Shown here piece after piece: positions 3,039 to 23,132 of a stretch of DNA of 32,000 nucleotides (its first letter is position 1; every line of letters begins with the position of its first letter). Both the position numbers and the translations under genes were made by a program. The notes under the pieces were generated by a model. The model was not told the origin of the DNA, ran no database searches, and worked only from the letters and a program-made list of their open reading frames with translations. The stretch is from the NCBI GenBank assembly GCA_001695645.1, contig LVZN01000023.1, positions 1 to 32,000 of the forward strand, given 5' to 3'. The DNA is from Erysipelotrichaceae bacterium MTC7. GTDB lineage: Bacteria > Bacillota_I > Bacilli_A > Erysipelotrichales > Erysipelotrichaceae.

Positions 3039-3041
3039 TCA

Positions 3042-3069: not shown

Positions 3070-3083
3070 TGTATAATACATGT

Positions 3084-5783: not shown

Positions 5784-8700
5784 CTATTTTCTTTTTCTGT
5801 TTTTTAAGATTAAGATTCCAGTAGTGGCAAACGCTAGTAGAAGTAAAACCACATAATTGGTACTTCTAAAAACATCACCTGCTTCAATCACTGTTGAAGT
5901 GCTTGTCTGCGATCCTTGGTGTTCATCTTCAACCAATGGATGGTTCTCCACTTGTTTTTGAATGTGCAAAACACCATGTGTATAGGATGCAATTTCATAG
6001 TTTGGATGTACGTTTCCACCCGAAATGGTAATTGCATGTTTTCCACTTGTTTGGGTATTGTTTACTGGATACACCAACAGCGGAACTGCAAGGACAACAT
6101 CTTCTTGTCTATGTCCTTCCACTAAATTTTTAACAACAAAGCTTGCTTCTGGCAACGCATCACCTACCGTAATGTTAACATCATTTGCTTGTAGGTGTAA
6201 TGGACGCTTGTTGATCGTAAACTGTTGACTTGCATGTCCTTTGTACTCGTAAACCTCACGGTTTATGTTGACATAAACTTGATACGTTCCTGCATCCACT
6301 GGTGCAATCTCACTTGGTGCATAATCCGTTCCGTTTATCCCCATGTACATAATCGAGTACGCTTCTGGTGATACTTCAACAATATTTTTATTTGCATCCA
6401 CAAACGTAAGTTCGCTTAGCTCATGGCCAAGACCATCGTATACGAGATCCTTTACAGTGAACACTGGAGTAAGCTGTGTTTTTTCTTTTATGGTTAAGGT
6501 AAGTGTTACTTCAAATGGTTCAAAGTTATCACTGTATACAAGAATTGGGATGCTTGCTTTTTTACCATGAGGCACAGCAGCAACATGCATAACGATATCT
6601 TTTTCATTTAACTGCACAGGTTCACTCAACAGTCCGTCATCGTTGTTCACTTCACCCAGTTGATAGTTCGCATTTCCAAGTTGTTGATGCTCAGGCAACG
6701 TTGGTAAAAGACTACGGTAATCAAAGCGATACGTATCAGCAGTATTCTCTTGTAGTGTATGTTCTTTTGTCTTCCCTTTGGTTGCGGCTTTTGTAATATC
6801 CACAAGCACATCGGTTGGTTGGATCAACTTGTAATTGTGTGCACGATCTCCAGCGATGCTTAGGTCGGTACGCACAGGTTTTTGCATTTCAGCTTTTGCA
6901 CTTGAAACATATCCTGTAGTCCCAATAAGTTGTACATCATCTTGATCTACATCAAGCAACCCTTCAAGGGTTCCACCAGTTAACGTCACTTGCTTCGATC
7001 CATTGTAAGCACGACTTTTCGCCTTTACATCTTTTGTTTCAACTTCTTTAGTTGCAATATCCACCGTAAGATTTGATGGTTGTTCAATTGTATAGTTGGC
7101 AGCATTTGCACCCGTTAATTGCATGTTGGTCGTTACGGCTTTTGCATTTCCTGCATTTGCATTGTCTAACGTTCCGCGTCCAACTTGCAAACTTACAGTT
7201 TCACCAGCAAGAACTCCCTCAAGTTCTCCACCGCGTAGTTCAACTATCTCTGTTCCATCATAGACACGATTGATGGTTTGAACACCTTTGACGCTAAGTA
7301 CGTGATTGGCAATATCTACAAACAGATCATCTGGTTGTTGTAGCGTATAATTGCCTTTATCTTTTCCCGTCAAGGTTACACTTGTGCTAACGGCTTTGTT
7401 TTTTCCAGTTGCCGCACTCGCAACCTGTCCTTCGTGTAAATCAAAGCTTACATCTTCTCCTGCTACCACATTTTTAAGTTTACCACCTTGTAATTCCACA
7501 CTTGTCTTTCCATTGTAAGCACGATTGACTGTACGTACATCTTCTAAGTGAAGCTCTCGTTTTGAAATATTGACTGTCACATCGGTTGGTTGGACAAATG
7601 TATAGTTGTTTACATCATAGTCACCATGTAGTTGAATTGCCGTTTGCACTGACTTGGCAGTTCCAACATTAGCAGTCATTATCTTTCCTTCACCTAATGA
7701 TGGACGTACATTTGCACCATCATCTCCAATGAATCCCGAAAGCGTTCCACCTGTTAGTTCAACCGTTTTCGTTCCATCATAGACACGATTTGTTGCTTTG
7801 ACGTTTGCAACTGTAATTTCTTTAGGTAAGATATCGACTGTTAAATTGTTTGGAAAAATCAGTCGATAGTTATTTGCGGCACTTCCCTTAAAGGTAAAGC
7901 CTATATACACATGCTTCAGTTTTCCTGCATTTGCGTCCTTCGTTTTTGCATGTACGATGGTAAGTTCAACGTTTTGCTTATCACTTTCAAAAACATCATG
8001 CAATGACATCCCCGTAAGTTCAACGCTTGTTGATCCATCATACGTTTTATTGGTTGCCTTTATATGTTCAAGGGAAAGCGGTAATTTTTCAATCGTATAC
8101 GTTCCAACTTTCAACGGTGTTGTAATCGGTCCAAAAGCAGTACCACCTGTTGTAGTGACACAAATTTCATACGTTCCAGCTTGGCTGGGTGCAGTTGTTG
8201 TAACGACTTGATTTTTATCTTTGTAATGGACGGTAATCAATCCACCTGTTTGCGTAGTGAATTTATTTTTTCCTTCCACAAGAACTGGTTGTTCTTTTGC
8301 ATTATAAATCACATTGGCAAAGGTATTGGTAAATTCCTGTTTTGTTGGTCTTTTTTGTATAACTTGTACAGGTAGTTCAATAAATCCATTTGTTGTTTCA
8401 TTTTCATATGAAATTCCATATTGATTTTTTGCTAGCGTTGACCAATATACATTTGCTGCTGGTGCCAAAAATAAATCTGTCGTACTTAATTCTTCGTACG
8501 TTTGTGATGCCCCATCTTGTGTATCCCATGCGATGATTTGTCCTGCTGATGTTGGTGAAAAACCTGGTTTACTAACCACATCGTTCGTTGACTTCCCATA
8601 ACTAAACACAGCTCCACCTTGCAGGCTTAGACTTGCTTCTTCTTTTGTTAGAATCGCAGGTTTTGTTGCACTTTCATTCATAATTAACCCGCCACGGATG

Positions 8701-10469
8701 GAAATTACATCTTCTCCAAAATACGATTGAATTGCCGGTTCTGTTTTTGCCCTAATAAGTGTTGTTGCACCGTTTGCTTGTGTAACATCCAGCGTCATCG
8801 AACCATAAATCGCCGCTCCATTTCCGGTTGCTTGAATGGTTCCACCAGAGATTTTTACCGTACTTGATGTATTAGATAAATCAAGAGCTCGTTTGTACGC
8901 ACTTGTTGATGTTGACGTAATCTGACCACCATTGATTTCAATTTGTGCTTTATGCATTTGTTCGATGGCTGTCCCCGTTGAACGAATGGTTCCATCGTTA
9001 ATGGTTAAATTTGAACTTGAATGTATCGCAACTCTATTCGAACTTGTACTTTCAATGAACGTGTCTTTACCATTGATTTCGATTGGCATAGTGTCGTCCG
9101 TTCTTCTTCCACCGTCAATTGCCACTTGTGAACCAATAATTTTACCACCATTTATGACTAGTTTTTTCTTGAGTGTTGGGTCTCCCATAACACTAATAGC
9201 GGTTGAACCTGTAACTTCTCCACCATTGATTTCCACATTTCCATTTGCGTAAATACCAGCACTGTTTGATCGAAGGGTTCCCCCATTTACAACTAAACTG
9301 TGGTTAGACTCAGTTATTCCAATAGCAGTTCCAGTACCATTAACACTGGTTGCCTCAACAATACCGCTATGTATGACAATATTACCAGATGCTGGAAATG
9401 TACTTTGCTTTTTTATTGATGCAATGGCGTAACCATATTCACCAGTTGCACGGACCGTTCCACCGTTGATGACAATTGAATCCTCAAGTATATCTCCATG
9501 AAACATTCCTATAGCAATTGCATTTTTCCCTGTTGATTCAACCAAGCCACCTTTATTGACGGTTAAGGTTGCTGCACCATTCACCAAAACTGTAGGTTCA
9601 CCCTTTGTTCCCCCACTTACTTTTCCACCATTTTCAATGACTGCTTTATCCGAAGCAGAAAGAGCGGTTCCAATTGTACTTTTAACAGTTCCTTTTCCAG
9701 ATACAACCACATCATTTGCTATAATTGCTTCCAATTTATTACCTGCAAGGTCAACGATTGTTTCTGGTCCGTTTACAGTCCCACCATTGATATTTACATT
9801 TTTTGCCATAATGGTTCTAGCACTCACTTTAGATAATAGCTCCCCACCATTTATGGTTACATGACTCTCGCGCGCTAAAATGGCCGCATTTAGTTGACCA
9901 TCGTTACGGGTTATTATTTTCCCTCCATTAACGATTATTTCACTTGCACGATCTTTAAGACTTTGCGGAAAAACAATTGATGATTGTTTTGCGCTAATCA
10001 ACCCATCATTAACTATAATATTTGTTGTTTCACTCTCATTTGTGATTGCGTCCGCTTGACTGATAAGTTCCCCACCAGTATCAAGAATAAACTCACTTTG
10101 TTTAGAGGCTTTTCGAATTAAGATTAGCGTTCCAACGCGCACAGAAGAGTGTTTATACTTCGCCTTCCATACGAGTTTTTGATTATTCAATGTAACTCGC
10201 ATCGGATTATCGTCACTCATCACCAAGGCATTTTCGCCTGTAACCGTGACACTCCCATTCGCACCTACTTCATCAAGTGCCTTTTGAATATTCTCTTGCA
10301 TTTGCACGGTTGTTTGTCCTGCGCTAATCACTACGCTTTTATTTCCCGCTCTTTCTTCAATTGCAAGCTTCATACGGACATGTCCATATGGAGTAGGTAT
10401 ACTTATCGTTATGACAATTATGCATAAGATAAACACTTGCAAACCTTTTATCAGTTTGTGTTTCTTCAT
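5784..10469 (-). CDS. Giant (1561 aa) cell-surface protein: signal/anchor, ~600-aa beta-helix-like NGG-repeat region, YDG/MBG-type repeats, C-terminal TM anchor
   Basis: The N-terminus has a hydrophobic signal. More than 20 reiterations of (I/V)NGGx(I/V/L)-type motifs follow. Then come five ~86-aa repeats of the form YDG/YNG-x-VEL-GG-L ... NY-x-(P)-D-V-I, and MBG-like segments (AGTYQVYV, NYEI). The C-terminus is a hydrophobic stretch plus KNRKRK. RBS AAGGGAAG. Confidence 0.85.
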   Translation of the reverse strand: MKKHKLIKGLQVFILCIIVITISIPTPYGHVRMKLAIEERAGNKSVVISAGQTTVQMQENIQKALDEVGANGSVTVTGENALVMSDDNPMRVTLNNQKLVWKAKYKHSSVRVGTLILIRKASKQSEFILDTGGELISQADAITNESETTNIIVNDGLISAKQSSIVFPQSLKDRASEIIVNGGKIITRNDGQLNAAILARESHVTINGGELLSKVSARTIMAKNVNINGGTVNGPETIVDLAGNKLEAIIANDVVVSGKGTVKSTIGTALSASDKAVIENGGKVSGGTKGEPTVLVNGAATLTVNKGGLVESTGKNAIAIGMFHGDILEDSIVINGGTVRATGEYGYAIASIKKQSTFPASGNIVIHSGIVEATSVNGTGTAIGITESNHSLVVNGGTLRSNSAGIYANGNVEINGGEVTGSTAISVMGDPTLKKKLVINGGKIIGSQVAIDGGRRTDDTMPIEINGKDTFIESTSSNRVAIHSSSNLTINDGTIRSTGTAIEQMHKAQIEINGGQITSTSTSAYKRALDLSNTSSTVKISGGTIQATGNGAAIYGSMTLDVTQANGATTLIRAKTEPAIQSYFGEDVISIRGGLIMNESATKPAILTKEEASLSLQGGAVFSYGKSTNDVVSKPGFSPTSAGQIIAWDTQDGASQTYEELSTTDLFLAPAANVYWSTLAKNQYGISYENETTNGFIELPVQVIQKRPTKQEFTNTFANVIYNAKEQPVLVEGKNKFTTQTGGLITVHYKDKNQVVTTTAPSQAGTYEICVTTTGGTAFGPITTPLKVGTYTIEKLPLSLEHIKATNKTYDGSTSVELTGMSLHDVFESDKQNVELTIVHAKTKDANAGKLKHVYIGFTFKGSAANNYRLIFPNNLTVDILPKEITVANVKATNRVYDGTKTVELTGGTLSGFIGDDGANVRPSLGEGKIMTANVGTAKSVQTAIQLHGDYDVNNYTFVQPTDVTVNISKRELHLEDVRTVNRAYNGKTSVELQGGKLKNVVAGEDVSFDLHEGQVASAATGKNKAVSTSVTLTGKDKGNYTLQQPDDLFVDIANHVLSVKGVQTINRVYDGTEIVELRGGELEGVLAGETVSLQVGRGTLDNANAGNAKAVTTNMQLTGANAANYTIEQPSNLTVDIATKEVETKDVKAKSRAYNGSKQVTLTGGTLEGLLDVDQDDVQLIGTTGYVSSAKAEMQKPVRTDLSIAGDRAHNYKLIQPTDVLVDITKAATKGKTKEHTLQENTADTYRFDYRSLLPTLPEHQQLGNANYQLGEVNNDDGLLSEPVQLNEKDIVMHVAAVPHGKKASIPILVYSDNFEPFEVTLTLTIKEKTQLTPVFTVKDLVYDGLGHELSELTFVDANKNIVEVSPEAYSIMYMGINGTDYAPSEIAPVDAGTYQVYVNINREVYEYKGHASQQFTINKRPLHLQANDVNITVGDALPEASFVVKNLVEGHRQEDVVLAVPLLVYPVNNTQTSGKHAITISGGNVHPNYEIASYTHGVLHIQKQVENHPLVEDEHQGSQTSTSTVIEAGDVFRSTNYVVLLLLAFATTGILILKNRKRK
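6786..8090 (-). repeat. Five tandem coding repeats (period 255-264 nt) inside the surface-protein gene
   Basis: The YDG/YNG codons recur at 8034, 7773, 7509, 7254 and 6999. A 20-nt identity (GTTCCATCATAGACACGATT) links the copies at about 7252 and about 7771. Confidence 0.75.
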
Positions 10470-10675
10470 GTAATACTTCCCTTCTCTTCAATACTTATCT
10501 TACACACATACCGTTATATAATAACTTAGTTATATAATGAAAGTCAATTTCAATGACTTCATATATTCATTTTTTTGTGTACTATAGAAGTAGTAACAAA
10601 CCTCTGTTTTACCTTACATTTTTGTTATGGGATACATGAAATATTCATGTTACAATGATTTAGGAGGGTTCGCCT

Positions 10676-11704
10676 ATCAAAAAAAATATCTTAAATGCAC
10701 TCCTACTGATTGGTTTAATTGCCTTTGCTTTATGGTTCACCTTACATGATGACTATAAACAAGTAATAGAAAACGTAAAAGCCATTCCTTTATGGTTAGT
10801 CTTCATTGTTTGTGGACTGGGAATTATTTACTATTGCTTACAAGGTTATGTCATTAGTCGATGTGCCAAAATATACAAAAAAGATATCCGTGTCATTGAC
10901 GGAATTCAAAATGCATATGTCGCTGCTTTCTTCAACGGTGTGACACCTGTTGGTGGTGGTCAAGTTGCTCAAAGTTTCGCGCTTAAACAAATCGGTATGA
11001 AAATCCCAGACATCGCTAGTACCTTATGGATGGATTTCTTCATGTTTCAAATTGTCGTCATTGTGTATGCTGCATTGATGTTAATTTGTAACATTAGTTT
11101 TGTCCTAACAGATTTAACTGTATATATGCCATTTATTATTCTTGGTTGGGCAATTAACTCATTTGTTATTATTGGCTTGTGGTTAATGACAAAATTCCCA
11201 AATGCATTTATTGCATTAACGGAATGGATCATTAAACTATTGCATAAAATACGTATTGTCAAAAACCCAGAAGAAACTGCAAAAAAATGGAAGCTTTCCT
11301 TAGAATACTTCCATAGTGAGATTATAAAACTAAAAAAGCGTAAGAAACTTTTGGTAAAAGGAATCTTGTGCAACATATTACGAATGACAATCTTCTATAG
11401 CATTCCATATGTCATTGCACTTGGTTATAACTTGCCACTTACACCCATCGATATTTTCCACATTGTGGCTATCTCATCCTTTGTGCATATGTTAAATGCC
11501 TTAACGCCACTACCTGGAGACACCGGCTTTACGGAAACCATGTTCATCTTGATTTACGCTATCGTCTTTCACGATTATGCAAAACCTATTATGATCATTT
11601 GGCGTTTAGCAACGTATTACATCAACATTATAATCGGTGCTGCTGTTTTATTCTATTTTCGCCTTAAAGGTTCGAAAACAAAAAAAGCGGATATTTATCA
11701 ATAA
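10676..11704 (+). CDS. UPF0104 / lysyl-phosphatidylglycerol-synthase-TM-region-like (flippase-like) membrane protein, apparent ATC start
   Basis: The frame is open from 10664 and encodes a typical family N-terminus (KKNILNALLLIGLIAFALWF...NGVTPVGGGQ). AGGAGG (10662-10667) lies 8 nt before ATC 10676. There is no ATG, GTG or TTG before the GTG at 10940, which would remove two TM helices. Confidence 0.65.
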   Translation: MKKNILNALLLIGLIAFALWFTLHDDYKQVIENVKAIPLWLVFIVCGLGIIYYCLQGYVISRCAKIYKKDIRVIDGIQNAYVAAFFNGVTPVGGGQVAQSFALKQIGMKIPDIASTLWMDFFMFQIVVIVYAALMLICNISFVLTDLTVYMPFIILGWAINSFVIIGLWLMTKFPNAFIALTEWIIKLLHKIRIVKNPEETAKKWKLSLEYFHSEIIKLKKRKKLLVKGILCNILRMTIFYSIPYVIALGYNLPLTPIDIFHIVAISSFVHMLNALTPLPGDTGFTETMFILIYAIVFHDYAKPIMIIWRLATYYINIIIGAAVLFYFRLKGSKTKKADIYQ

Positions 11705-11744
11705 AAAAGAGTCTTTCCACAGTCGTGGAGAGGCTCTTCTTTTT
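11705..11744. terminator. Bidirectional terminator between convergent genes
   Basis: A 14-bp stem (11707-11720 with 11725-11738, two G-U pairs), loop AGTC, flanked by an A run on the left and a T run on the right. Confidence 0.75.
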
Positions 11745-12960
11745 ACACGTGTGGTAACTGTATCTTGATGGTAAACATATCGTTTACACTGATTGCTTGA
11801 ATCGTTCCTTTGTGGATTTCCACAATACGTTGGCAAATCGACAACCCTAAACCATGACCACCCGTTTGTGAGTTGCGATCAGCATCTGCTCGATAAAATC
11901 GTTCAAACAAGCGCTCAGTTTTTTCTTTTGGTAAGGTTGGGCTTGGGTTGCAAATACGCAGATTCGCATACTTTCCATCCTGTTGCAGTTGTACGTGAAT
12001 CGTACTGTTTGCTTCGCTATATTTTAACGCATTTTCAAGTAAGGAAACTACAACTTGTTCCAACAGTTCTTTTTGTCCATTGACTTGCACATGATGCGCA
12101 ATATTTGGTTCAAGCTGTAACTGTTTTTCAAATGCCTGTACTTCCATCATTAAACACACTTCTTCAACCACCAAAGAGAAATCAAAGATTTGATGTTGTT
12201 TTACATAATCTTCATCACTTCTTGATAGATAGAGCAAAGAATTGGTTAGTTTGGTGGTTCGCTTGACTTCATCTTGAATGTTATCAAGCCACCGTCTTTG
12301 ATTAGAAATCGTATCTTCACCACTTGATAACATGGCATCTACATTTGTTGAAATGATGGTTAGTGGTGTTTTTAGTTCATGACTTGCATCACTAACAAAG
12401 TCCTGTTGCTTTTTAAAGGTGCTTTGTATAGGTGCGATTGCCCGACCTGCAAAATAGTTTGAGAACCAAACGACAACCACTAAAGAAATTACACTAACTA
12501 AACCAAATGCCATCATCATTTGCTTTAGCATGTCACTTTGCTGGTTGATGTCCAAAAAAGCGATTTTATATTTCCCAGCGTTTTCTTGCACTTTATATGC
12601 AAAGTATCGTCCGTTCAATTGAAAGTATCCATTTGTTTTATGAATATCCACTTTCTCGACCAAACTTGTATACACGGTTTCATTCAACGAAACAAAGGAT
12701 GGTTCACTGGTTGCTAAAATTGTTTTATCTTTATCCACAACAGCCAGATACGAGATACTTTCTGGACCATTGCTATCTTCTTTATTTGGTATCATTGGTG
12801 CTTTAAAATGAACATCCAGGGTTTTACTTAATTCCTTTTGAATATCGCGATTGGTGTTTTGAACAGTTAAAAAGCCTACCGCAAAAAATGCAGTTAAAAG
12901 AATGCAGGCGATGCTGATTACATTCATCAGTAGAAATTTCTTTTTTAATTTCTTAAACAT
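11743..12960 (-). CDS. Sensor histidine kinase (two TM helices, ~130-aa extracytoplasmic domain, HisKA + HATPase)
   Basis: H-box SHELKTPLT and the G-box region GGHGLGLSI. Start MFKKLKKK (12960) with GGAGGTG upstream; 8-nt overlap (ATGTTTAA) with the response regulator. Confidence 0.85.
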   Translation of the reverse strand: MFKKLKKKFLLMNVISIACILLTAFFAVGFLTVQNTNRDIQKELSKTLDVHFKAPMIPNKEDSNGPESISYLAVVDKDKTILATSEPSFVSLNETVYTSLVEKVDIHKTNGYFQLNGRYFAYKVQENAGKYKIAFLDINQQSDMLKQMMMAFGLVSVISLVVVVWFSNYFAGRAIAPIQSTFKKQQDFVSDASHELKTPLTIISTNVDAMLSSGEDTISNQRRWLDNIQDEVKRTTKLTNSLLYLSRSDEDYVKQHQIFDFSLVVEEVCLMMEVQAFEKQLQLEPNIAHHVQVNGQKELLEQVVVSLLENALKYSEANSTIHVQLQQDGKYANLRICNPSPTLPKEKTERLFERFYRADADRNSQTGGHGLGLSICQRIVEIHKGTIQAISVNDMFTIKIQLPHV

Positions 12961-13636
12961 CTTGCACCTCCACGAGTTTGTATCCAACCCCACGAAGGGT
13001 TTGAATTGCCGTATGGGATTGCACATATTTTAGTTTTTTACGTAAAAAAGAAATATAAACTTCCACATGGTTAAAACTAGCATCGCTTTCATAGCCCCAA
13101 ACTTTATCCAGCAATAATTCCTTTGTTGTCACCGTTGTTTGTTGCGACATTAACAATTCTAAAATCTCTGCCTCTTTCAAAGTTAAGGTGATTTGATTCC
13201 ACTTAGTTTTCAGTAATAGATTTGTTTTATCTAACTGGATATCACCAAAATATAATTCATCTTCTTCCAACATCACATGTCGACGTCTAAGATTTGCCCG
13301 AATACGTGCAAGTAACTCTTGGGTATCAAAAGGTTTAGCAATATAATCATCTGCTCCATAATCCAAACCACGTATCTTATCTTGCACATGATCCTTTGCT
13401 GTTAACATTAAAATTGGAATTTGAATGTCTTGCATGCGTAAAGCAGATAGCACTTGAAAGCCATCCTGTTTTGGCAACATCACATCCAAAAGAATCAAAT
13501 CGTGAATATTCGCTAACGCTTGATCTTCACCGTCCAACCCATCATAAGCGACGTCAACTAGATAATTGTTTTTTCTAAGAATTTGTGCAAGTGAATCTGC
13601 TAGTTTCTTTTCATCTTCAATAATTAATATTCGCAT
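12953..13636 (-). CDS. OmpR/PhoB-family response regulator
   Basis: Receiver domain (MRILIIEDE, DLILLDVMLP, LTAK) plus a winged-helix C-terminus (LTLKEAEILELL..., RGVGYKL). I chose the canonical MRILII start. Confidence 0.85.
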   Translation of the reverse strand: MRILIIEDEKKLADSLAQILRKNNYLVDVAYDGLDGEDQALANIHDLILLDVMLPKQDGFQVLSALRMQDIQIPILMLTAKDHVQDKIRGLDYGADDYIAKPFDTQELLARIRANLRRRHVMLEEDELYFGDIQLDKTNLLLKTKWNQITLTLKEAEILELLMSQQTTVTTKELLLDKVWGYESDASFNHVEVYISFLRKKLKYVQSHTAIQTLRGVGYKLVEVQDV

Positions 13637-13666
13637 ATATATACCCATAGTAAGTATATCATTCTT

Positions 13667-13699
13667 CCTTAAAAAAACCTTAAATTCCATTTAACCTTC
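13667..13699. promoter_or_regulatory. Direct repeats (candidate OmpR-type response-regulator binding site) in the divergent intergenic region
   Basis: CCTTAAA occurs at 13667 and 13678, 11 bp apart. A third CCTT at 13695 overlaps the -35 position of a TATACT box (13717-13722). Confidence 0.35.
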
Positions 13700-13757
13700 T
13701 TTTAAGATTTGCTATCTATACTTCTAGTAAGCAATCACTTGCATCGAAAGGAACTAT

Positions 13758-14558
13758 ATGGCAAAAGAAGTATTTGGACGACATGAATGTAAATTCATAG
13801 TCAATCAGCAACAAAAAGATGCTCTACTAGTTGCACTCAAAAAGAGCATCGAACATGATATCTACAACAAAGATGGAAAACCTTACACCATCTACAACTA
13901 CTACATTGATGATGCTTACAACACGTATCTACAACGTTCCGTTAGCAAACCACGATATAAAGAAAAACTACGAATTCGTGGATATGCACCATTTACTGAT
14001 ACCGGTATCGTCTTTGTGGAAGTGAAAAAGAAATACAAGAAGTATGGAAATAAACGAAGGGTACAAATGACTTTTCAAGAAGCAAAAGCATTTATTGAAA
14101 AAGGTGTGTTACCTGCTGATATCTCTAATATCAATCAACAAGTATTATACGAGTTGAAAACGATGATTGATAAACAGCGGTTACACCTGAAAGTACATGT
14201 GCAATATGATCGATATGCGTTTTTCTCAACTACAGAAAAAGGTTTACGTTTTACCTTTGATACAAACATCATAAGTCATCGCAAGCATGACAAAACCCGC
14301 ATTTTACTCGAACCCGGTTTGTATGTTTTAGAAATAAAAGCCGAAGGAAGTTTTCCTTTGTGGTTGGTCAAACTTTTACAACAACACCAAATATATAAAC
14401 AAAGCTTTTCTAAAATAGGAAAAGAATATGAGCTTTATACAAAAGAACTAGCAGAAAAGAAACACGCAAATAAGCAAATGGAGGAATTATATGTTAGAAA
14501 CACTGTTCAATACAACTACAGACACAACAACCCTATCACTCGAAAATCTACTTTGTAG
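13758..14558 (+). CDS. VTC-domain protein (polyphosphate-polymerase-like triphosphate-tunnel/CYTH-like domain)
   Basis: N-terminal RHECKFIV strand, YKEKLRIRGY, and VFVEVKKKYKKYGNKRRV basic strands match bacterial VTC-domain proteins as I recall them. RBS AAAGGAAC. Confidence 0.7.
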   Translation: MAKEVFGRHECKFIVNQQQKDALLVALKKSIEHDIYNKDGKPYTIYNYYIDDAYNTYLQRSVSKPRYKEKLRIRGYAPFTDTGIVFVEVKKKYKKYGNKRRVQMTFQEAKAFIEKGVLPADISNINQQVLYELKTMIDKQRLHLKVHVQYDRYAFFSTTEKGLRFTFDTNIISHRKHDKTRILLEPGLYVLEIKAEGSFPLWLVKLLQQHQIYKQSFSKIGKEYELYTKELAEKKHANKQMEELYVRNTVQYNYRHNNPITRKSTL

Positions 14559-15174
14559 CATGGGGATTGCTTTACTATTAGGAGCAATGATTGCTTTGAC
14601 CTATAAACACACAAGTAAAAACCACTATTCGCAAAACTTAATCATCAGCTTACTTTTACTTCCCGTTTTAATGAGTTGTGTATTTTTATTGATTGGAAAT
14701 AACGTTGCCGGTGCATTTTCTTTAGCAGGTGTCTTTTCAGTCATTCGCTTTCGAAGCGCACCAGGAAGTAGTCGCGATATTGTATATATTCTCTTTTGCG
14801 TTGCCGTTGGTTTAGCATGTGGACTTCAAGCACTACTGTTTGCGATTGTCATCACGGTATGCATTTGTATCGTCTTCTTTTCATTGGAAGTGTTTCAAAG
14901 TCATAACCAACATAGTAAACGTTTGAAACTAGTAATGCTGGTTCCTGAAGAAATGAACGTGGAAGAACTCTTTTCAAACATTCTTCAAGACTACACAAAA
15001 GCATTTGAACTTGTGCGCATGCGTACCAAAGATTTCGGAAGTGTGTTTGAACTAACGTACATAATATCTATGTATGAAAGTCAAAATAAACATGAACTTC
15101 TTGATGTCCTACGAATGCATAATGCCAATTTAAATATTTCCATCAGTAACCTTAGTCAAATTGACGAGTTTTAG
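14491..15174 (+). CDS. DUF4956 family integral membrane protein
   Basis: Four predicted TM helices and the hallmark GAFSLAGVFSVIRFRSAPGSSRDIVYILFCVAVGLACG, plus a ~90-aa soluble C-terminus. The ATG has GGAGGA 5 nt upstream and overlaps the VTC ORF by 68 nt. Confidence 0.75.
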   Translation: MLETLFNTTTDTTTLSLENLLCSMGIALLLGAMIALTYKHTSKNHYSQNLIISLLLLPVLMSCVFLLIGNNVAGAFSLAGVFSVIRFRSAPGSSRDIVYILFCVAVGLACGLQALLFAIVITVCICIVFFSLEVFQSHNQHSKRLKLVMLVPEEMNVEELFSNILQDYTKAFELVRMRTKDFGSVFELTYIISMYESQNKHELLDVLRMHNANLNISISNLSQIDEF

Positions 15175-15182
15175 GAGATCCT

Positions 15183-16769
15183 ATGAAACACATAAAACAG
15201 ATATTTATTGTATTGCTATGTATGATAATTGTCAGTGGTTGTCAAACAAGCAAGCAAAAAGCAACAAACACAGACAACGAAGAGAATGTAATTACGCTAG
15301 ATAAGGATACGATTAACTGTAAAACTGATGGTGTTGTAATTACAGGAACAACTGCAACCATCACCAAAGCTGGAAACTACACGATAACTGGCACACTGGA
15401 CAATGGACAAGTGATTGTCGATACCACAGACGATGCGAAGGTGACCCTTATTTTGGTTAACGCTAACATTCATAGTGAAACAAGTAGTGCAATTTATATT
15501 AAAAATGCGGAGACAACGACCATCACGCTAAAAGAAAACTCAGAGAATCATCTCAGCGATGCATCAACATACAGTAGTCTCGATGAGAGTGGTGAACCAG
15601 ACGCAACACTTTTTGCAAAAGATGATCTAGTGATTAATGGTACGGGTTTATTATCTATTCAAGCAAATTACAAAGATGGCATTGTTGGTAAAGATGATGT
15701 AATCATTGAAGATGCAACGATCAAGATACAAGCAAATGATGATGGAATCCAAGGTAAGGATTCACTGGGACTGAAAAATGCAAACCTTGCAATTGAAGCA
15801 GTAAATGATGCCATCAAATCTACGAATGATACAGATGCTAAAAAAGGAACCATCGAAATTCATGGTGGCAGCTATCAATTGCAAACATCGGGAAATGATG
15901 AATCAAGTCATAAAGCAATTAAAGCATATACGTCACTCACCATTAGTGAAGGAACATTTACGATTGATGCAACAGATGATGCTTTACATGCACAAAATGT
16001 CACAATTGATGGGGGGCAATAAACAATCCAAAGTGGTGATGATGGCATTCATGCTGATACAAGTTTAGTCATCAATCAAGGTACGATTGATATCCAAACT
16101 TCTTACGAAGGAATTGAAGCAAGTGATTTGCAAATCCACGGTGGAACCATTTCTATTGTGTCTACTGATGATGGAATCAATGCTGCAGGAGGTAGCGATG
16201 ATTCCACCCAATCAACATCTCAAAGTTTTCCTGGTGGCCCTGGTAGCGATAGGTTTTCATCTTCAACTGGTACGTTACTAATCACAGGTGGAAATATCCT
16301 AGTTAACGCAGAAGGTGATGGTATTGATGTCAATGGTGATGCAACAATTGCTGGTGGTGAAATTCTTGTCTACGGACCAACAAATGACGGCAACGGCGCA
16401 CTTGATTACGATGGAACATTTCTTGTGAATGGAGGCAGTCTAGTTGCCTATGGCTCTAGTGGAATGGCACTTAACATAAGTAGTACGTCTACACTCCCAT
16501 CCGTCATGATCAACTTGGACACTTCGATACAAGCCGGTGCGCAAGTATCCATTCTTGACGGAGAAGGCAATGAAATCTATCATGGAACGAACGCTAAAAA
16601 AGCCAATTCCTTAATCATTGCAAATACAGCATTACAGCTCAACTCAACCTATACCTTACAAGTGGACGATTCAACCATCACGACCTTTACTTTTACCACC
16701 ACAGTTACTACCATTGGTAATAGTGGTCAAATGAACGGTGGACCTACTGACTTTGGTCGCCCTCGCTAA
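15183..16769 (+). pseudogene. Cthe_2159-type (carbohydrate-binding beta-helix) lipoprotein gene interrupted by a single in-frame TAA at 16020-16022
   Basis: Lipobox IIVSGC. Repeats of the form I-x-GG-x-I...DDGI run through both pieces: 15183-16022, and 16023-16769 in the same frame with no further stops. The repeat unit is cut mid-motif (ITIDGGQ*TIQSGDDGIHAD). Confidence 0.7.
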
Positions 16770-16772
16770 CAA

Positions 16773-16806
16773 AAACAAGCAATCTTTTAGTGATTGCTTG
16801 TTTTAC
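16773..16806. terminator. Bidirectional terminator between convergent genes
   Basis: AACAAGCAATC-ttttagt-GATTGCTTGTT with flanking A and T runs. It overlaps the last codons of the minus-strand regulator. Confidence 0.65.
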
Positions 16807-17572
16807 TTTCTTCTAATAATTCAACAAATTGTTTGGGACTGCAGTTCATGTATTTTTTAAAAACAACACTGAAGTACTTATATTCACTTATACCAATTTG
16901 TTCGGGAATTTCGTTTGGTTGAAACGTTTTGTTTTTTAGTAACTCAATGGCTTTTTGAATACGAAAGCGATTGAGGTATTCAATAAAGGTTAAACCAACG
17001 GCTTGTTTAAAACGTCGACTCAATAGTGATTCACTGTAATTTAACGTTTCACATAGATCTTCAATGGTAATTCGTTCTTGGTAATGCGCACTTACAAACT
17101 GTAGCATATCTTGTACCAACGCATCTTTTGCTTGGACAACTTTAAGCAATTCGATGTCATGTAAGGCATCTTTGTTTTGTTGGATTTTCTCATAGGTTGC
17201 TAGCATGTTTCTTTGTTCAATTGCTTGTTGGAGAGCAGCTTCTAATTCCTTTTGTTCCACAGGTTTTAAGACATAATCACTCACCCCAAAACGAACCGCC
17301 TTTTGAGCATAGGAGAAGTTGCTATACCCAGAAATGATAATTGCGGTATAGTTATAGTCAATGGTTTTTTCAATCATCGCTAAACCATCCATACGTGGCA
17401 TATTGATATCACTAATCACTATGTCAGGTTGCAACTCTTGAATTGCTTGAATCCCTTCTACACCATTGGATGCTTCACCAACTAGCATACATTCATATTT
17501 TTCAAAGTCGATGAGTGAGATTAAACCTTTACGAATAATCTCTTCATCTTCGACAACTAAAATTTTATACAT
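16787..17572 (-). CDS. Response regulator with AraC-type HTH output (YesN-like)
   Basis: Receiver domain (MYKILVVEDE, DIVISDINMP) plus an AraC-family C-terminus (ITIEDLCETLNYSESLLSRRFKQAVGLTFIEYLNRFRIQKA). 8-nt overlap with the kinase gene. Confidence 0.85.
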   Translation of the reverse strand: MYKILVVEDEEIIRKGLISLIDFEKYECMLVGEASNGVEGIQAIQELQPDIVISDINMPRMDGLAMIEKTIDYNYTAIIISGYSNFSYAQKAVRFGVSDYVLKPVEQKELEAALQQAIEQRNMLATYEKIQQNKDALHDIELLKVVQAKDALVQDMLQFVSAHYQERITIEDLCETLNYSESLLSRRFKQAVGLTFIEYLNRFRIQKAIELLKNKTFQPNEIPEQIGISEYKYFSVVFKKYMNCSPKQFVELLEESKTSNH

Positions 17573-19250
17573 GTGAACTCCTTTTTTGCTTAATTTTGAT
17601 CAAGATACTTGTTCCTACTTGATTTTCACTCATAATATCCAATTGACTATCCAAACCATACATCAGCAACAATCTTCGATTGATGTTATACAAACCAAAC
17701 TGTGAATTTGCATTGGCTTGTTTTGCTAGATTCACTTGAATTTGGACAAGTCTATCTGGTTCAATACCCAGTCCATTGTCATGAACCTCAATAAATACAT
17801 AATCCAGTTTTGAATATACAAATACATCTATTTTAAGTTGATCTTTTTTCTCATACCCATATTTGATACTATTTTCCACCAATGGTTGTATCAGCAGTTT
17901 GGGTACTAGCACATCCGTGACTGCATCATCAATCATTAAGTTTACCGTTAAACGTTCCTTATAACGATATTTCATAATATCGAGATATTGATTCACAAAG
18001 TCTATTTCTTCTTCCAAATGGACTTCATCTGCACCATGATTGATACTGTATCGCAAGATTTTTGTCAGTTTAATGATAAGTGCACTTGCCATAGCAGGAT
18101 CACTTTCAATCGTATAGCGAATGGTTTCTAGGGTATTGTAAATAAAGTGTGGATTCAACTGAGCTTCCAATTGTTTGATTTCACTCATTTTTCGATTGTA
18201 GTGCAATTCGCTATTTTGCGAAGCTATGGTTTGAATCGCAACCACCATGTCGTTGATATCATTAGCGAGATTTTCAAATTCATCACCAGAATGCATCACA
18301 ATGCGGTGATTCAAATCCCCTGCTTTGATCACTTCTAGCTCTGCCATTAACATCTCTATACTCTGTACGCGATTTTCAACCAATAAGCGATTTTGTTTGC
18401 GTAAAATCCACCATGTTAATCCAGAGAAGCATGTGAATAAAACAATTCCCAATACATAAGAAGATACATATCCATTCAAGTGTGCCAAGCTTACTATATG
18501 TAAAAGCATTGCTCCACGACGATACGTGTCATTATCCACGTAAATTAGATTGTTGTCACCATCTTTTTTGATCCCTTCTTTTAGATATTGATCTTGAATT
18601 CGATGCAAACTACCACTTTGGAATTCAACGGAATTCGAGGCAAGAACATTGCCAAAACCATCAACGATTGCAGTTTTATTGTAGGTACTTGAGATGATGT
18701 TGTTTAAAGCATCCCGGTTATAGAAGTAAGAAACATAGCCAACCAGCTGTTCATCTTCAAACAATCCTGAAGTAAAAACCAGACAAGTCGTATTTTTTGA
18801 GATACGAAGTACCCGTGTTGTGTAACGATTGTTGCGCAAAGAATCTGTATCAAGGTATGCATATTTATCCATGTACATTTTTTCATCTTCGATATTAAAC
18901 GTTGAAAATTGCAATTGCTTATGTACATCTGTCAGTAACAAATCCGCTTTTACATCCGCTTTGCTGTTGAAACTGTAGTAGGTTTGATAAACACAGTCTT
19001 CACCTTGCCCGGTTTTAAGGTAGTTCAAATAGTTTTCATTGCGTCGTGTGACTTCTAAGGTATCTTCGTATTGATCGAAAATGTTATTTAAAACACCTTT
19101 GACTTGGAACGATGATTCATCAACACTGCGCGAAACACTAAACACATCAACAAGTAAAATCATGATGGTAAACAAGACGAAAAACGCAATCAAAATGCGA
19201 TTGGTGAATTTTCTAAGATCCTCTTGTAGGTTTTCTTTAAATTGTTGCAT
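17565..19250 (-). CDS. Sensor histidine kinase, YesM/LytS-type (His_kinase PF06580-like) with HAMP and a large extracytoplasmic domain
   Basis: LEAQLNPHFIYNTLETI H-box, characteristic of the YesM family; HAMP-like region (IKAGDLNHRI); C-terminal ATPase. I chose the start MQQFKEN (GAGGGA upstream). Confidence 0.8.
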   Translation of the reverse strand: MQQFKENLQEDLRKFTNRILIAFFVLFTIMILLVDVFSVSRSVDESSFQVKGVLNNIFDQYEDTLEVTRRNENYLNYLKTGQGEDCVYQTYYSFNSKADVKADLLLTDVHKQLQFSTFNIEDEKMYMDKYAYLDTDSLRNNRYTTRVLRISKNTTCLVFTSGLFEDEQLVGYVSYFYNRDALNNIISSTYNKTAIVDGFGNVLASNSVEFQSGSLHRIQDQYLKEGIKKDGDNNLIYVDNDTYRRGAMLLHIVSLAHLNGYVSSYVLGIVLFTCFSGLTWWILRKQNRLLVENRVQSIEMLMAELEVIKAGDLNHRIVMHSGDEFENLANDINDMVVAIQTIASQNSELHYNRKMSEIKQLEAQLNPHFIYNTLETIRYTIESDPAMASALIIKLTKILRYSINHGADEVHLEEEIDFVNQYLDIMKYRYKERLTVNLMIDDAVTDVLVPKLLIQPLVENSIKYGYEKKDQLKIDVFVYSKLDYVFIEVHDNGLGIEPDRLVQIQVNLAKQANANSQFGLYNINRRLLLMYGLDSQLDIMSENQVGTSILIKIKQKRSSHV

Positions 19251-19266
19251 AGGTCCCTCGTATACC

Positions 19267-19290
19267 ACAAAAAGGTGTCTTTGACACCTT
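19267..19290 (-). terminator. Hairpin / intrinsic terminator or attenuator between the ABC permease gene and the kinase gene
   Basis: Minus-strand AAGGTGTC-aaa-GACACCTT followed by TTTGTGG. The stem contains the permease stop codon and ends about 16 nt before the kinase ATG. Confidence 0.5.
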
Positions 19291-20959
19291 AAATTGTAAC
19301 ATTATCACTCTTGGAAATCTTCATAAAAATGAGTAGAGAGATAACTGTTAATGTTGTTAGGATGGCTGCAAGAGCAGCTGCTACCCCATAGTTTCCACGC
19401 ACAACTTGTTGGTAAATGGAAACGGTTAACGTTTGGGTTTTTACTGTGTATAGCAATACTGCAGTCGACAATTCCGAAATCATCGTTACCCAACTGAGAA
19501 TTGCTCCAGCAATGATTCCGTTTGCCATCATAGGCACAGTAATTTTGAAGAAAGTTTTCATCTTCGAACAACCCAAACTCAATGCCGCTTCTTCAATGCT
19601 CATCGGTATTTGTTGCAATGTTGCCGTTGAAGAACGAATTGTATACGGTAACCGACGAATGACCAGTGCCACAATCATAATACCAATCGTTCCACCGATC
19701 GCTAAAATTCCTGACCCCATAATTCCTGTATTGAATGCTGTTAGTAAAGCAATCCCTAAAACCGTTCCTGGAATAATGTAAGGTACCATAGAAATTACAT
19801 CAATGGTTCCAGTTGCAGGGTTTTTACGTCGTACCGTTAAATAAGAGATTAATACGGCTAACAAAATGATCAACACAAGTGCAATCCCAGGAATCAAAAT
19901 GGTATTTTGAATAGAATTTCCTAATCTTGAAAATGCAGTACGATACGATTCAAACGAATACCCTTCCACAAATATTTTTCCCCGTGTATTTAAGAATGAA
20001 GTATATATAACATACGCTTGCGGTAAGATCGCCAAACCAACAACACCATAACAGAAAATATAAGATACTATACTCGTACGTTTGTTTTGGAAGTTTTTCT
20101 CTTCAATTGGATGCAATGAATTCATCGAGAAACTCTTGCGGTTTGCAACCCATTTTTGAACTAAGAAAACTATCGTTGTAATTAATACGGCAATAATTGC
20201 AATCGCTGCTGCAAATCCATCATCACCACTTACCTCACCTAAGAACTCGGTGAAAATCAAGACAGGAAATGTACGATACCCTTCCCCGATTAACATTGGT
20301 GTCCCAAAGTCTGCAAGTGCTCGCATGAATACAAGTAACATTGCAGCAAGTAACATTGGCATAATGAGCGGAATGATGACTTTAAAGAAACGTTTTGCTC
20401 CTGTACACCCCATGTTTTCACTTGCTTCAATCAATGAATTATCAACGTTTCTTAGCGCCCCTTGTACATACAAGAACACGAGTGGAAACAGTTGTAAGGT
20501 AAAGACAAGTAAGATTCCACCAAACCCGTAAATATCAGGTGTTTGGAAACCAACAGTTTGGTTAAAGAAATTTGTAATTACTCCATTACGTCCAAGCAAT
20601 AATATCCAAGCATACGCTCCAATAAATGGTGCTGACATTGATGCGATGATAATTAAGACTTGTAACACTTTCTTTCCTTTCACACGATACATTGTGAACA
20701 AGTAAGCTAATGGAGTCCCTACTGCTAAAGCTAATGCTGTTGCACATAAGGAAACCTTAAAACTATTCATTAAGGTATCAAAATAGTACGACTGTGAAAA
20801 GAATTTAATAAAATAATTAAATGTGATGTCTCCACTTGTTTTATCCACAAATGCCTGTAGCAGCAATTTCCCAACAGGATAAAGCAAGAAGATTGCATAA
20901 AGTAAGATGACTCCAATGGTAATAAGTTTCCATGGATCCATGCGTAACTTAGCTTTCAA
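19289..20959 (-). CDS. ABC transporter permease, fused double (2 x 6 TM) Fbp/Afu/Pot-type
   Basis: 556 aa with two BPD-transporter-like halves carrying EAA-type loops (IEASENMGCTGAKRFFKVIIP and EEAALSLGCSKMKTFFKITVP). The start is uncertain: TTG at 20959 or ATG at 20941. Confidence 0.8.
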   Translation of the reverse strand: MKAKLRMDPWKLITIGVILLYAIFLLYPVGKLLLQAFVDKTSGDITFNYFIKFFSQSYYFDTLMNSFKVSLCATALALAVGTPLAYLFTMYRVKGKKVLQVLIIIASMSAPFIGAYAWILLLGRNGVITNFFNQTVGFQTPDIYGFGGILLVFTLQLFPLVFLYVQGALRNVDNSLIEASENMGCTGAKRFFKVIIPLIMPMLLAAMLLVFMRALADFGTPMLIGEGYRTFPVLIFTEFLGEVSGDDGFAAAIAIIAVLITTIVFLVQKWVANRKSFSMNSLHPIEEKNFQNKRTSIVSYIFCYGVVGLAILPQAYVIYTSFLNTRGKIFVEGYSFESYRTAFSRLGNSIQNTILIPGIALVLIILLAVLISYLTVRRKNPATGTIDVISMVPYIIPGTVLGIALLTAFNTGIMGSGILAIGGTIGIMIVALVIRRLPYTIRSSTATLQQIPMSIEEAALSLGCSKMKTFFKITVPMMANGIIAGAILSWVTMISELSTAVLLYTVKTQTLTVSIYQQVVRGNYGVAAALAAILTTLTVISLLIFMKISKSDNVTI

Positions 20960-20961
20960 AA

Positions 20962-22040
20962 CTACATACCTTTTGAGTAGTTTGTTTCACCATTTTGATC
21001 AAACACATTGATCTTGTGGCTTTTGACTGCAAGTACTACTTCACTGCCTTTCTCTACATTACTTCGCAAATCAGATTCACTGACCACTTCAATAACTTTT
21101 CCGTTACCAAGTTTACAATAATAATGCGTATTCAATCCTAAGAAGATACTATCTAACACTTCAGCTTTGATACCTTCTCCACTTGTGCAAATTTGAAATT
21201 CTTCTGGACGAATGGAAACTACAACATCTTGTGCTTCTGTCGTATTTACGTCAATTGCAAATGGTGCTTCTTGTTCCACACTAACATACATCTGTCCGTT
21301 TTCTTGTGTTAGTTTTCCCTCAAGTAAGTTTGTTCGACCAATGAAAGTAGCAACAAACGTATTTTCTGGACGATGGTAAATATCCTGTGGCGTTCCCAAG
21401 TGTTGAATGATTCCATCCTTCATAATTGCCACACGATCACTTACTGCCATCGCTTCTTCTTGGTCATGCGTTACATAAACGGTTGTAATACCCACTTCTT
21501 TTTGAATGTTACGAATGGCTTCCCGCATTTCTACACGAAGTTTTGCATCAAGGTTACTTAACGGTTCATCCATCAACAATACATCAGGCATAATAGCGAG
21601 CGCACGTGCCAAAGCCACACGTTGTTGTTGACCTCCGGATAAACGTTCAGGCAAACGTTCTTGATATGTATCGATTTGCATAAGTTTTAGAAATTTATCG
21701 GTTTGTGTTTTTATTTGTTCTTTTGAAAGTTTTCTTTGTTTCAATCCAAACTCAACGTTTTGGCGAACGGTTAAGTGCGGAAAGATCGCATAGTTTTGAA
21801 ACACCATCCCGATGTTTCGTTTACTTGGTTCTTTGTCATTAATACGCTCTTCATTGAAATAAAAGTCCCCACCTTCAATTGAGTTAAATCCTGCAATCAT
21901 TCTTAACAATGTGGTTTTCCCACATCCTGAAGGTCCTAGCAAAGTAAAGAACTCTCCATCTTTTATTCTAAATCAAGATCGGGGATAATCACATTATCCC
22001 CATATTTCTTGAGCGCATGTGTTATTGAAATTGTGCTCAT
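20962..22040 (-). pseudogene. ABC transporter ATP-binding protein (PotA/FbpC-like with C-terminal TOBE-like domain) carrying a 1-nt frameshift near 21963-21968
   Basis: ATG at 22040 (GGGGAG RBS) gives MSTISITHALKKYGDNVIIPDLDLE then TAA. The next frame continues KDGEFFTLLGPSGCGKTTLL (Walker A), LSGGQQQR and LLMDEP. One extra A (GAAATAAAAGAT) would restore ...DLEIKDGEFF... Confidence 0.75.
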
Positions 22041-22061
22041 GGTATACTCCCCTCTGTCTGC

Positions 22062-23084
22062 TTATTTTGATGAAATTTTTGTGAATACGTCTTTGTATCT
22101 TTCAACGATGTTTTCTCTATTAGCGATTACGTATTCACTATCTTCTTCAATTGTTTTAATGTCTTTCATAGGTTTCATAACATCACCCATTTTTACGTCT
22201 TTTAGTACTGGACGGTTTGTTGTGTTTTCACCAAGGTAGTCTTGGCATTCTTTTGATTGGATGAAATCAATAAATTTCTTTGCTGCTTCAGGGTTTTTAC
22301 AGTTTTTGATAATACCTGAACGTGCTGGTAAGAAAACAGTTCCTTCACTTGGATAAATCACCTCAACTGGTGCACCATCACGAACTAATGTTACCGTTGG
22401 ATCTTCATAAGATAAACCAACAACCATTTCACCGTCTGCTACAGATTTGTAAACTCCAGATGAACTAGATGAAATTTTACCATCGATGTTTGTGAATAAA
22501 TCTTCTACATATTTCCATGCAGCATCATCATCGTATCCACCTTTTGCAAGTAACATATTTGTCAGTTGTGCAAATGAACTTGAAGAGTTTGTTGGATCTC
22601 CCGTTGCAATTTTTCCTTTAAGTTCTGGATTTAATAAATCTTCATACGATGTAATTTTAATATCTCCAATTAAGTTTTTATTTACGATTAAGTTACTTCC
22701 GTCTAATGTGTATGCAGAAGCAACCTTTGAAGTATTTTGGTAAGCTTCAATTACGTTTTCATCATTTGGACTTACATACTCTTCAAATAAATCTTTATTT
22801 GGTAAGTAGTGTGTATCTTGTCCACCCCACATAATATCAGCAACAGGATCATCTTTTTCTGCTTGTAACTTTTTAATACATTCTCCTGTTCCCACTTGTT
22901 GTATTTCGACTTTAATTCCTGTTTCTTCTTCAAATGCAGGAATAACCGCCTCAACTAACCCCTCTGAGTTTGGTGAGTAGATTACTAGCGTTTCGTTCGC
23001 ATTATCCTTTCCTCCACCACATGCAGTCATCGTTGCTACCATCATTAACGATAAACATGCGAATACAATTTTTTTGATTTTCAT
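22062..23084 (-). CDS. ABC transporter substrate-binding lipoprotein, Fbp/Afu (iron(III)/sugar-phosphate-type) family
   Basis: Lipobox MTACGG; VIYSPNSEGLVEAVIPAFEEETGIKVEIQQ...ADIMWGG is typical of PBP2 Fbp-like proteins. RBS GAGGAGA. Confidence 0.8.
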   Translation of the reverse strand: MKIKKIVFACLSLMMVATMTACGGGKDNANETLVIYSPNSEGLVEAVIPAFEEETGIKVEIQQVGTGECIKKLQAEKDDPVADIMWGGQDTHYLPNKDLFEEYVSPNDENVIEAYQNTSKVASAYTLDGSNLIVNKNLIGDIKITSYEDLLNPELKGKIATGDPTNSSSSFAQLTNMLLAKGGYDDDAAWKYVEDLFTNIDGKISSSSSGVYKSVADGEMVVGLSYEDPTVTLVRDGAPVEVIYPSEGTVFLPARSGIIKNCKNPEAAKKFIDFIQSKECQDYLGENTTNRPVLKDVKMGDVMKPMKDIKTIEEDSEYVIANRENIVERYKDVFTKISSK

Positions 23085-23132
23085 AGACTTTATTCTCCTC
23101 TCGTTATGAATTTCTATGTACATCTTAATTGA

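Follow-up and report, generated by a model that had tools for sequence, protein, structure and literature searches.

Bacterial synthesis of polyphosphate (polyP) is attributed to PPK1 and PPK2. The 32,000-nucleotide stretch of Erysipelotrichaceae bacterium MTC7 analysed here (contig LVZN01000023.1, positions 1 to 32,000; called the window) raises the question of whether some bacteria also use an enzyme of the kind found in yeast Vtc4. The window contains an operon that starts with a gene of the VTC family, followed by genes for a DUF4956 membrane protein and a Cthe_2159-type lipoprotein, and a two-component system (TCS) is transcribed divergently from it. We find that positions 11743-16804 form a self-contained, conserved and bounded cassette, and that the cassette is a widespread bacterial variant of the VTC type. 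Its identity and its regulation, taken together, are in our judgement highly probable. The genes and edges of the cassette are the following:

11707-11738, no strand: terminator-like hairpin, a 14-pair stem followed by a T-run, the left edge of the module
11743-12960, minus strand: histidine kinase (HK) gene, from the open reading frame (ORF) listing and Pfam
12953-13636, minus strand: response regulator (RR) gene, from the ORF listing and Pfam
13637-13757, no strand: intergenic region of 121 bp between the TCS and VTC genes
13758-14558, plus strand: VTC ORF, from the ORF listing and Pfam (VTC, E=1.2e-38)
14491-15174, plus strand: DUF4956 ORF, from the ORF listing and Pfam (E=3e-17)
15183-16769, plus strand: Cthe_2159-type lipoprotein gene, from Pfam, interrupted in the window
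16772-16804, no strand: terminator-like hairpin immediately 3' of the lipoprotein stop codon, the right edge of the module

The left hairpin sits between the HK gene and an LPG_synthase_TM gene, which are convergent. The DUF4956 ATG (14491) is preceded by GGAGGA, 5 nt upstream, and its ORF overlaps the VTC ORF by 68 nt, while the lipoprotein ATG (15183) lies 8 nt past the DUF4956 stop codon, with an AGGAG overlapping that stop. The RR and HK genes overlap by 8 nt, ATGTTTAA. These coordinates, overlaps and Shine-Dalgarno sites, as well as the CCTTAAA repeats of the intergenic region, had been given in a first-pass annotation made by a model, and the ORF listing and direct reading confirm them. 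The public gene call for DUF4956 (P0041) has 204 aa and starts 23 codons downstream of 14491; the ORF of 227 aa is the better call, since homologs align over the full 227 aa and GGAGGA precedes ATG 14491.

The VTC protein is soluble and has 266 aa. Pfam gives no other domain in it, and it obtains 133.5 bits with the VTC model (PF09359), for which the gathering cut-off is 23. NCBIfam holds no model for VTC or DUF4956. A single-sequence phmmer search with the VTC protein against the PDB gave no relevant match, and a profile built from an alignment of 35 homologs was needed to reach the Vtc4 structures. This profile matches the Vtc4 catalytic domain with E=2.6e-16 and the inactive paralogs Vtc2/3 with 1e-8 to 1e-7. 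The AlphaFold2 (AF2) model, with a predicted local distance difference test (pLDDT) score of 90.9, has the closed beta-barrel tunnel fold. When it was compared with the PDB by Foldseek, the best 13 matches were all VTC tunnel domains (Vtc4/3/2, E ~1e-13, TM-score 0.63), and the next were CYTH and other triphosphate-tunnel (TTM) enzymes. The residues that bind triphosphate and Mn in Vtc4 are listed in the cryo-EM paper on the VTC complex, and each has an equivalent in the window protein:

K12: triphosphate ligand K200 of Vtc4
R72: triphosphate ligand R264
R74: triphosphate ligand R266
K90: triphosphate ligand K281
Y150: triphosphate ligand Y359
R152: triphosphate ligand R361
E192: Mn ligand E426
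S218: triphosphate ligand S457
K219: triphosphate ligand K458

All nine, K219 among them, are invariant across the 35 homologs. The alignment has 25 invariant positions, in the alternating pattern expected for tunnel-lining strands. According to the same paper K458 is the one residue replaced in the inactive Vtc2/3, and we find Ile or Leu at its position there. The window enzyme belongs to the same Pfam family as the yeast Vtc4 catalytic domain and shares its tunnel fold and its nine triphosphate/Mn ligands; the first ORF of the operon is a genuine Vtc4-type triphosphate-tunnel domain with intact catalytic residues. The likeness to Vtc4 had been proposed in the first-pass annotation, which named lack of a TTM fold or loss of the tunnel residues as outcomes that would speak against it. 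The profile, the Foldseek matches of the model and the nine mapped ligands bear the proposal out, and clearly neither outcome is found.

Judged from its sequence, the VTC protein is probably a polyP polymerase. It might instead be another triphosphate-tunnel enzyme, such as a tri- or polyphosphatase, a nucleoside triphosphatase or a cyclase, with DUF4956 modulating ion or energy homeostasis like MgtC. Such chemistry would agree with the CYTH and TTM hydrolases being the next-best structural matches. It would also agree with strand beta1, which reads R-x-E-x-K in the window protein versus R-x-T-x-K in Vtc4 and retains one Glu (E10) of the hydrolase ExExK motif. We nevertheless consider it quite improbable. 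The profile resembles catalytic Vtc4 far more than it does CYTH enzymes or the inactive Vtc2/3, the polymerase-specific K458 is included among the nine invariant ligands, and R8 stands in place of the first Glu of ExExK, as in Vtc4. Because these Vtc4-specific residues are kept, a different TTM chemistry is less likely than polyP that is made and stays in the cytoplasm, which is taken up below.

The cassette had been described as an orphan in the first-pass annotation. This does not hold: at E<=1e-30 the VTC family contains 1998 clusters (50% identity), and a CotH variant of the cassette has already been noted in print. To see the gene order we surveyed a curated set of 13 loci from Erysipelotrichia, Clostridia and Paenibacillus, and a metagenome set of 62 non-redundant loci, 28 of them with full flanks (>=5 kb on both sides). 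The gene next downstream of VTC is DUF4956 in 13/13 curated loci and in all 52 metagenome loci with sufficient downstream sequence, and the two ORFs overlap in most loci. DUF4956 is an obligate partner of the VTC enzyme, and the conserved synteny on which the earlier proposal depended holds across Firmicutes. No natural VTC-DUF4956 fusion was found among the top 150 VTC matches (229-356 aa) and the top 120 DUF4956 matches (204-234 aa).

What kind of membrane protein is this partner? The DUF4956 protein (227 aa, homologs about 225-235 aa) has about five transmembrane (TM) helices, and the homolog alignment shows the invariant stretch GNN.A.AFSLAG.FS.IRFRSA, whose RFRS/GNN motif is located within and beside the TM helices. 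The AF2 model, of moderate confidence (pLDDT 73.6), consists of five helices followed by a beta-alpha-beta-beta-alpha-beta domain. From the positive-inside rule the topology would be N-out/C-in, with the RFRS loop and the C-terminal domain both cytoplasmic. In Foldseek only the C-terminal domain is matched, weakly, by ACT, PII and MgtC C-terminal folds (E ~0.01-0.05) and by CutA. With the Pfam MgtC model the window protein has E=0.63 and the best of 36 members E=0.0017, all below threshold; in 23/36 members these weak matches span the whole TM region. In a preprint on S. intermedius, the TM domain of the homolog is independently placed in MgtC, according to CDD, and its C-terminal part is named an ACT domain. 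The model has the layout of the MgtC family, a TM bundle with a cytoplasmic ACT-like C-terminal domain, and like MgtC/SapB/YhiD it starts with a bundle of about five TM helices. Unlike MgtC, DUF4956 has its own invariant motif (GNN...RFRSA) and is always paired with the VTC enzyme, and its MgtC scores are sub-threshold.

Weak matches to Pfam prok_STING also occur in 14/36 DUF4956 members (alignment A3, best E=0.005), and the window protein has a weak STING_LBD match at residues 136-202 (E=0.016). These probably reflect noise, arising from the TM helices or from the small domain.

An analogy of DUF4956 to a channel or transporter was considered and is unsupported, as its profile gave only noise against the PDB and Foldseek matched only the C-terminal domain, weakly. 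On profile and model, DUF4956 appears MgtC-like in layout and is not a homolog of the VTC channel. The term "split VTC" used in the first-pass annotation is right for the catalytic part, which is homologous to VTC; it fails for the membrane part, which has no sequence or fold similarity to the Vtc1/3/4 channel. Hallmarks of the eukaryotic complex are an SPX domain and a TM channel of the Vtc1 type that carries rings of basic residues, and the cassette has neither. In contrast to the yeast complex, the window enzyme has neither SPX nor a TM domain fused to it. The cassette has no channel subunit of the Vtc1 type (DUF202), an unrelated, MgtC-like protein serves as membrane partner, and control is by a bacterial TCS, not by inositol pyrophosphates.

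The TCS and its target sites are the second part of the evidence. The HK (405 aa) has two TM segments around an extracytoplasmic region of ~120 aa, then HisKA and HATPase_c (Pfam), and its orthologs adjoin VTC in L001 (Breznakia blatticola), L003 (C. swellfunianum), L004, L011 and L013 of the survey. The RR (227 aa) is of the OmpR/PhoB family, with Response_reg and Trans_reg_C domains (Pfam) and the recognition helix NHVEVYISFLRKKL. It is 42-84% identical to the VTC-linked RRs of six other loci, and the recognition helix is common to this lineage. The neighbouring TCS in L007 was rejected as the cognate regulator; its RR is 32% identical to the window RR and has a different recognition helix. 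Neither protein reaches an NCBIfam equivalog, PhoB/PhoR included (RR 187 bits with a cut-off of 296, HK 162 with a cut-off of 334). The intergenic region contains the following sites:

13653-13658, minus strand: -10 hexamer TATACT of the inferred TCS promoter, read from the sequence, 8 nt downstream of the TCS-directed box
13667-13684, minus strand: perfect putative RR box, CCTTAAA-N4-CCTTAAA on the plus strand and TTTAAGG-N4-TTTAAGG on the minus strand
13690-13707, plus strand: VTC-directed putative RR box, TTTAACC-N4-TTTAAGA with 3 mismatches, overlapping the -35 of the operon promoter
13717-13722, plus strand: -10 hexamer TATACT of the operon promoter, 9 nt downstream of the VTC-directed box

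The box at 13667-13684 is the sole perfect match within the 32 kb window, and the same position is kept in L001, L004 and L013; its orientation toward the TCS genes suggests autoregulation. L001 shares the layout of the TCS promoter, with TATAAT as the hexamer. A third CCTT at the -35 position had been reported in the first-pass annotation; it is present, and belongs to the second, inverted box at 13690-13707 that points to VTC. With a receiver and winged-helix RR, a HisKA and HATPase HK, and a direct-repeat operator overlapping the -35, the system is a TCS of the OmpR/PhoB type.

The CCTTAAA-N4-CCTTAAA repeat is found in the TCS/VTC intergenic region of 7/7 TCS-linked loci, the RR lineage thereby co-occurring with the TTTAAGG-N4-TTTAAGG box. 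It is also found 5' of a separately placed Cthe_2159 gene in C. swellfunianum (L003) and 5' of the CotH-VTC operon in L005. In the 28 full-flank metagenome loci 18/29 boxes lie within 400 bp 5' of VTC, which is 2.4% of the sequence, i.e. a ~26-fold enrichment. The spacer between the box and a TATAAT-like -10 is exactly 9 nt in 27/30 loci having both and, because of this fixed distance, the box covers about -39 to -22, in place of the -35. As read from the sequence, this is a putative case of class II activation by the RR in the style of PhoB and the pho box. The pho box likewise consists of two 7-bp direct repeats with 11-bp periodicity, replacing the -35 at a fixed distance from the -10, and PhoB is a winged-helix regulator of the OmpR/PhoB family, as is the window RR. 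The differences are the half-site TTTAAGG, the paired inverted boxes serving two divergent promoters, and RR and HK scores below the equivalog cut-offs. The conserved box and the fixed promoter geometry support the earlier claim that the TCS is a dedicated regulator. What is new here is the regulation of the VTC-DUF4956 cassette by this RR lineage and box.

Could the TCS, the VTC-DUF4956 pair and the lipoprotein gene be neighbours by chance, with the CCTTAAA repeats as AT-rich noise? Shuffled AT-rich sequence of the window does yield about one box match at <=2 mismatches. However, the arrangement recurs in Erysipelotrichia, Clostridia and Paenibacillus, and the ~26-fold enrichment just 5' of VTC and the fixed 9-nt spacer exclude this explanation, to which we give a negligible probability.

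The box is not confined to loci with a cognate TCS. It occurs with the 9-nt spacer 5' of VTC in, for example, L007 (6921-6938), L008 (6901-6918) and the metagenome loci L089, L023, L036 and L053, and no cognate RR or HK was found within the 7-8 kb flank on either side in these six. The regulator of these box-bearing loci must therefore be encoded elsewhere in the genome. L005 has an orphan winged-helix domain of 130 aa (3035-3427, minus strand) that belongs to the VTC-linked RR lineage, with the same recognition helix and no receiver. It adjoins a box at 3472-3489, 5' of a CotH(dockerin)-VTC-DUF4956 operon, and could be a constitutive activator or a remnant.

A third question is what the cassette does at the cell surface. 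A surface partner is encoded in 10/13 curated loci (Cthe_2159 in seven, CotH in three, NAGPA additionally in two) and in at least 14 of the 28 full-flank metagenome loci (Cthe_2159, CotH or NAGPA). The CotH counts are lower bounds, as the two-sequence CotH profile missed CotH of the Bacteroidota type; a Pfam scan added L032 and L050. Each partner protein examined bears a lipoprotein signal, a Sec signal or an N-terminal TM anchor. The remaining loci contain the VTC-DUF4956 pair only, amid unrelated housekeeping genes. The first-pass annotation proposed the lipoprotein as the outside partner. The survey does not make it an obligate one: about half of the related loci have the pair alone, and here the gene is interrupted.

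Several other genes were seen close to the cassette. NAGPA (phosphodiester glycosidase) genes with N-terminal TM anchors lie inside the VTC cassettes of L013 (5261-6193) and L002 (10732-11772); in L013 the gene is between the TCS and VTC, with a second box at 6195-6212. A DUF4474 gene is near the Cthe_2159/VTC cassette in two Clostridia loci, L003 (25-867) and L012 (1954-2997), and L012 additionally has GGDEF and Metallophos_2 genes close by. The DUF4474, GGDEF and Metallophos_2 neighbours may be further accessory components.

In the window, the lipoprotein gene (lipobox VSGC) is cut by an in-frame TAA at 16020-16022 (plus strand) into 15183-16022 and a remainder to 16769, Tyr280 being changed to a stop. 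It had been read as a single ORF before, and the stop had been missed. Pfam Cthe_2159 (PF14262) matches both halves, the N-terminal one with E=2e-67 and the C-terminal one with 6e-12. The ortholog in B. blatticola (L001) is intact with 534 aa, has TAT at the position of the stop codon, and matches the solved Cthe_2159 structures 4PEU/4PHB with E=1e-36. Two independent metagenome assemblies (L014 and L015, 97% and 99.3% identical) have TAC (Tyr) at 16020-16022. Since relatives carry TAC or TAT, the stop is a strain-specific single-base nonsense change or an assembly error, and does not belong to the system as such. An alternative genetic code was ruled out as the explanation of the in-frame TAA, because close relatives have TAC and all other ORFs here end normally.

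Taken together, these features can be arranged into a mechanism. The HK would sense an extracytoplasmic signal and phosphorylate the OmpR/PhoB-type RR, as the conserved box geometry suggests. The RR would bind the two oppositely oriented TTTAAGG-N4-TTTAAGG boxes that replace the -35 of the two divergent promoters, switching on the TCS itself and the VTC-DUF4956-lipoprotein operon. The VTC enzyme would polymerise phosphate from nucleoside triphosphates into polyP, its translation presumably coupled to that of DUF4956, and DUF4956 would dock the polymerase at the membrane and conduct or present the polymer. In the weakest step the polymer would reach the outer face of the membrane, where tethered partners would bind or use it; the partner is the Cthe_2159 beta-helix protein here and a CotH kinase or a NAGPA phosphodiesterase-type protein in other loci. 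For the chain as a whole, i.e. inducible, membrane-associated polyP synthesis with possible surface delivery, our confidence falls slightly short of even. Export of the polymer to the cell surface is by itself doubtful.

The most extensive form of this reading is that VTC and DUF4956 constitute a third, PPK-independent bacterial polyP route. Synthesis would be coupled to membrane crossing, and the product would serve the tethered CotH, NAGPA or Cthe_2159 proteins as a surface polyanion or as an extracytoplasmic phosphoryl donor, under a dedicated PhoB-like TCS. We put it forward tentatively, as an unlikely proposal when taken in full. Its main rival, which we also rate as unlikely, keeps the polyP in the cytoplasm without export. 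DUF4956 would then be an MgtC-like anchor or allosteric regulator whose ACT-like domain senses a metabolite, and the surface proteins would merely share its regulation, as part of an envelope or phosphate stress regulon. The authors of the S. intermedius study favoured cytoplasmic polyP. The MgtC-like character of DUF4956 (the weak matches in 23/36 members) and its C-terminal ACT/ferredoxin-like fold agree with this, as does the occurrence of the pair alone in about half of the related loci, and MgtC works by binding partner proteins. However, it is hard to explain without a trans-membrane link why the enzyme repeatedly clusters, and shares its box, with proteins of three unrelated folds that are all strictly extracytoplasmic, and the invariant RFRS/GNN motif in and next to the TM helices suggests more than anchoring.

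Several observations weigh against a route with export. The lipoprotein gene is interrupted in the window, about half of the related loci have no surface partner, and 22/28 full-flank metagenome loci have no local TCS. The R-x-E-x-K of beta1 leaves room for hydrolytic TTM chemistry, and a biochemical characterisation of any bacterial VTC protein was not found in the searchable literature. As for DUF4956, the confidence of its model is only moderate, neither its profile nor its model matches the VTC TM chains (7ytj, 8i6v) or a known transporter, and MgtC, its nearest relative, is a regulator rather than a transporter. Finally, S. intermedius mutants deleted for the homologous trio showed no clear phenotype.

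The trio is not entirely new to the literature. In Gram-positive pel operons, VTC, DUF4956 and CotH have been noted as accessory genes (S. intermedius SIR_1594-1592; Whitfield et al. 2020), and NELoc-2 of C. perfringens contains a VTC-"tubulin"-CotH cluster. In the S. intermedius preprint the proteins are described in silico as a VTC-like polymerase and an MgtC-like TM/ACT protein, and the trio is reported as not found outside pel operons. In contrast, the cassette is often outside pel operons in our survey, the CotH form in L011 included. The pel-operon cluster has the same VTC-DUF4956 pair with a secreted partner as the window cassette; here, however, the partner is a Cthe_2159 lipoprotein and not CotH, and the cassette has its own divergent TCS and conserved box. 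No CotH or pelDEADAFG genes were found among the window ORFs covered by two scans, the remaining window ORFs being unchecked. A regulon of this TCS and box, and the Cthe_2159 form of the cassette, were not found in the searchable literature. Nor was an experimental function for the gene trio, in agreement with the first-pass annotation.

A 2026 preprint describes extracellular polyP in the Gram-positive B. cereus group that is independent of PPK1/PPK2, and searches for the pathway behind it. According to its authors B. cereus has no VTC4 homolog, and the cassette is therefore not the answer there. In other Firmicutes, gut and oral species among them, it is a testable candidate. The candidate for a PPK-independent route is a concrete one because an intact Vtc4-type enzyme occurs in thousands of clusters, its membrane partner is constant, and surface kinases or polyanion binders are frequent. 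The conserved box and fixed promoter geometry provide an experimental handle on the operon. If the proposal is true, DUF4956 would gain a role, and secreted CotH kinases a possible phosphoryl donor.

The surroundings of the cassette show a few further features. The LPG_synthase_TM (MprF-like) gene at 10673-11704 (plus strand) aligns over its full length with the B. blatticola ortholog (85% identity, residues 2-344). Upstream of GTG 10940 it lacks a canonical start codon, and in both species a GGAGGG is located 7 nt 5' of an ATC; the conserved GGAGGG and ATC may mark a non-canonical start. In L005, too, the VTC pair has such a neighbour, an LPG_synthase_C gene, and a link of the LPG_synthase genes to the cassette is unproven. 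Further left, the gene at 5784-10469 (minus strand) encodes a protein of 1561 aa with five YDG domains. It is found in the window and in L014; the B. blatticola locus L001, syntenic in other respects, does not have it, so that the gene looks like a lineage-specific insertion. To the right, 16787-23123 (minus strand) encodes a YesN-like AraC-type RR, a YesM-like HK, a fused double permease, a TOBE-domain ATPase and a solute-binding protein. This module lies between the lipoprotein gene and the genes that adjoin the cassette in B. blatticola, and relative to that species it appears to be inserted.

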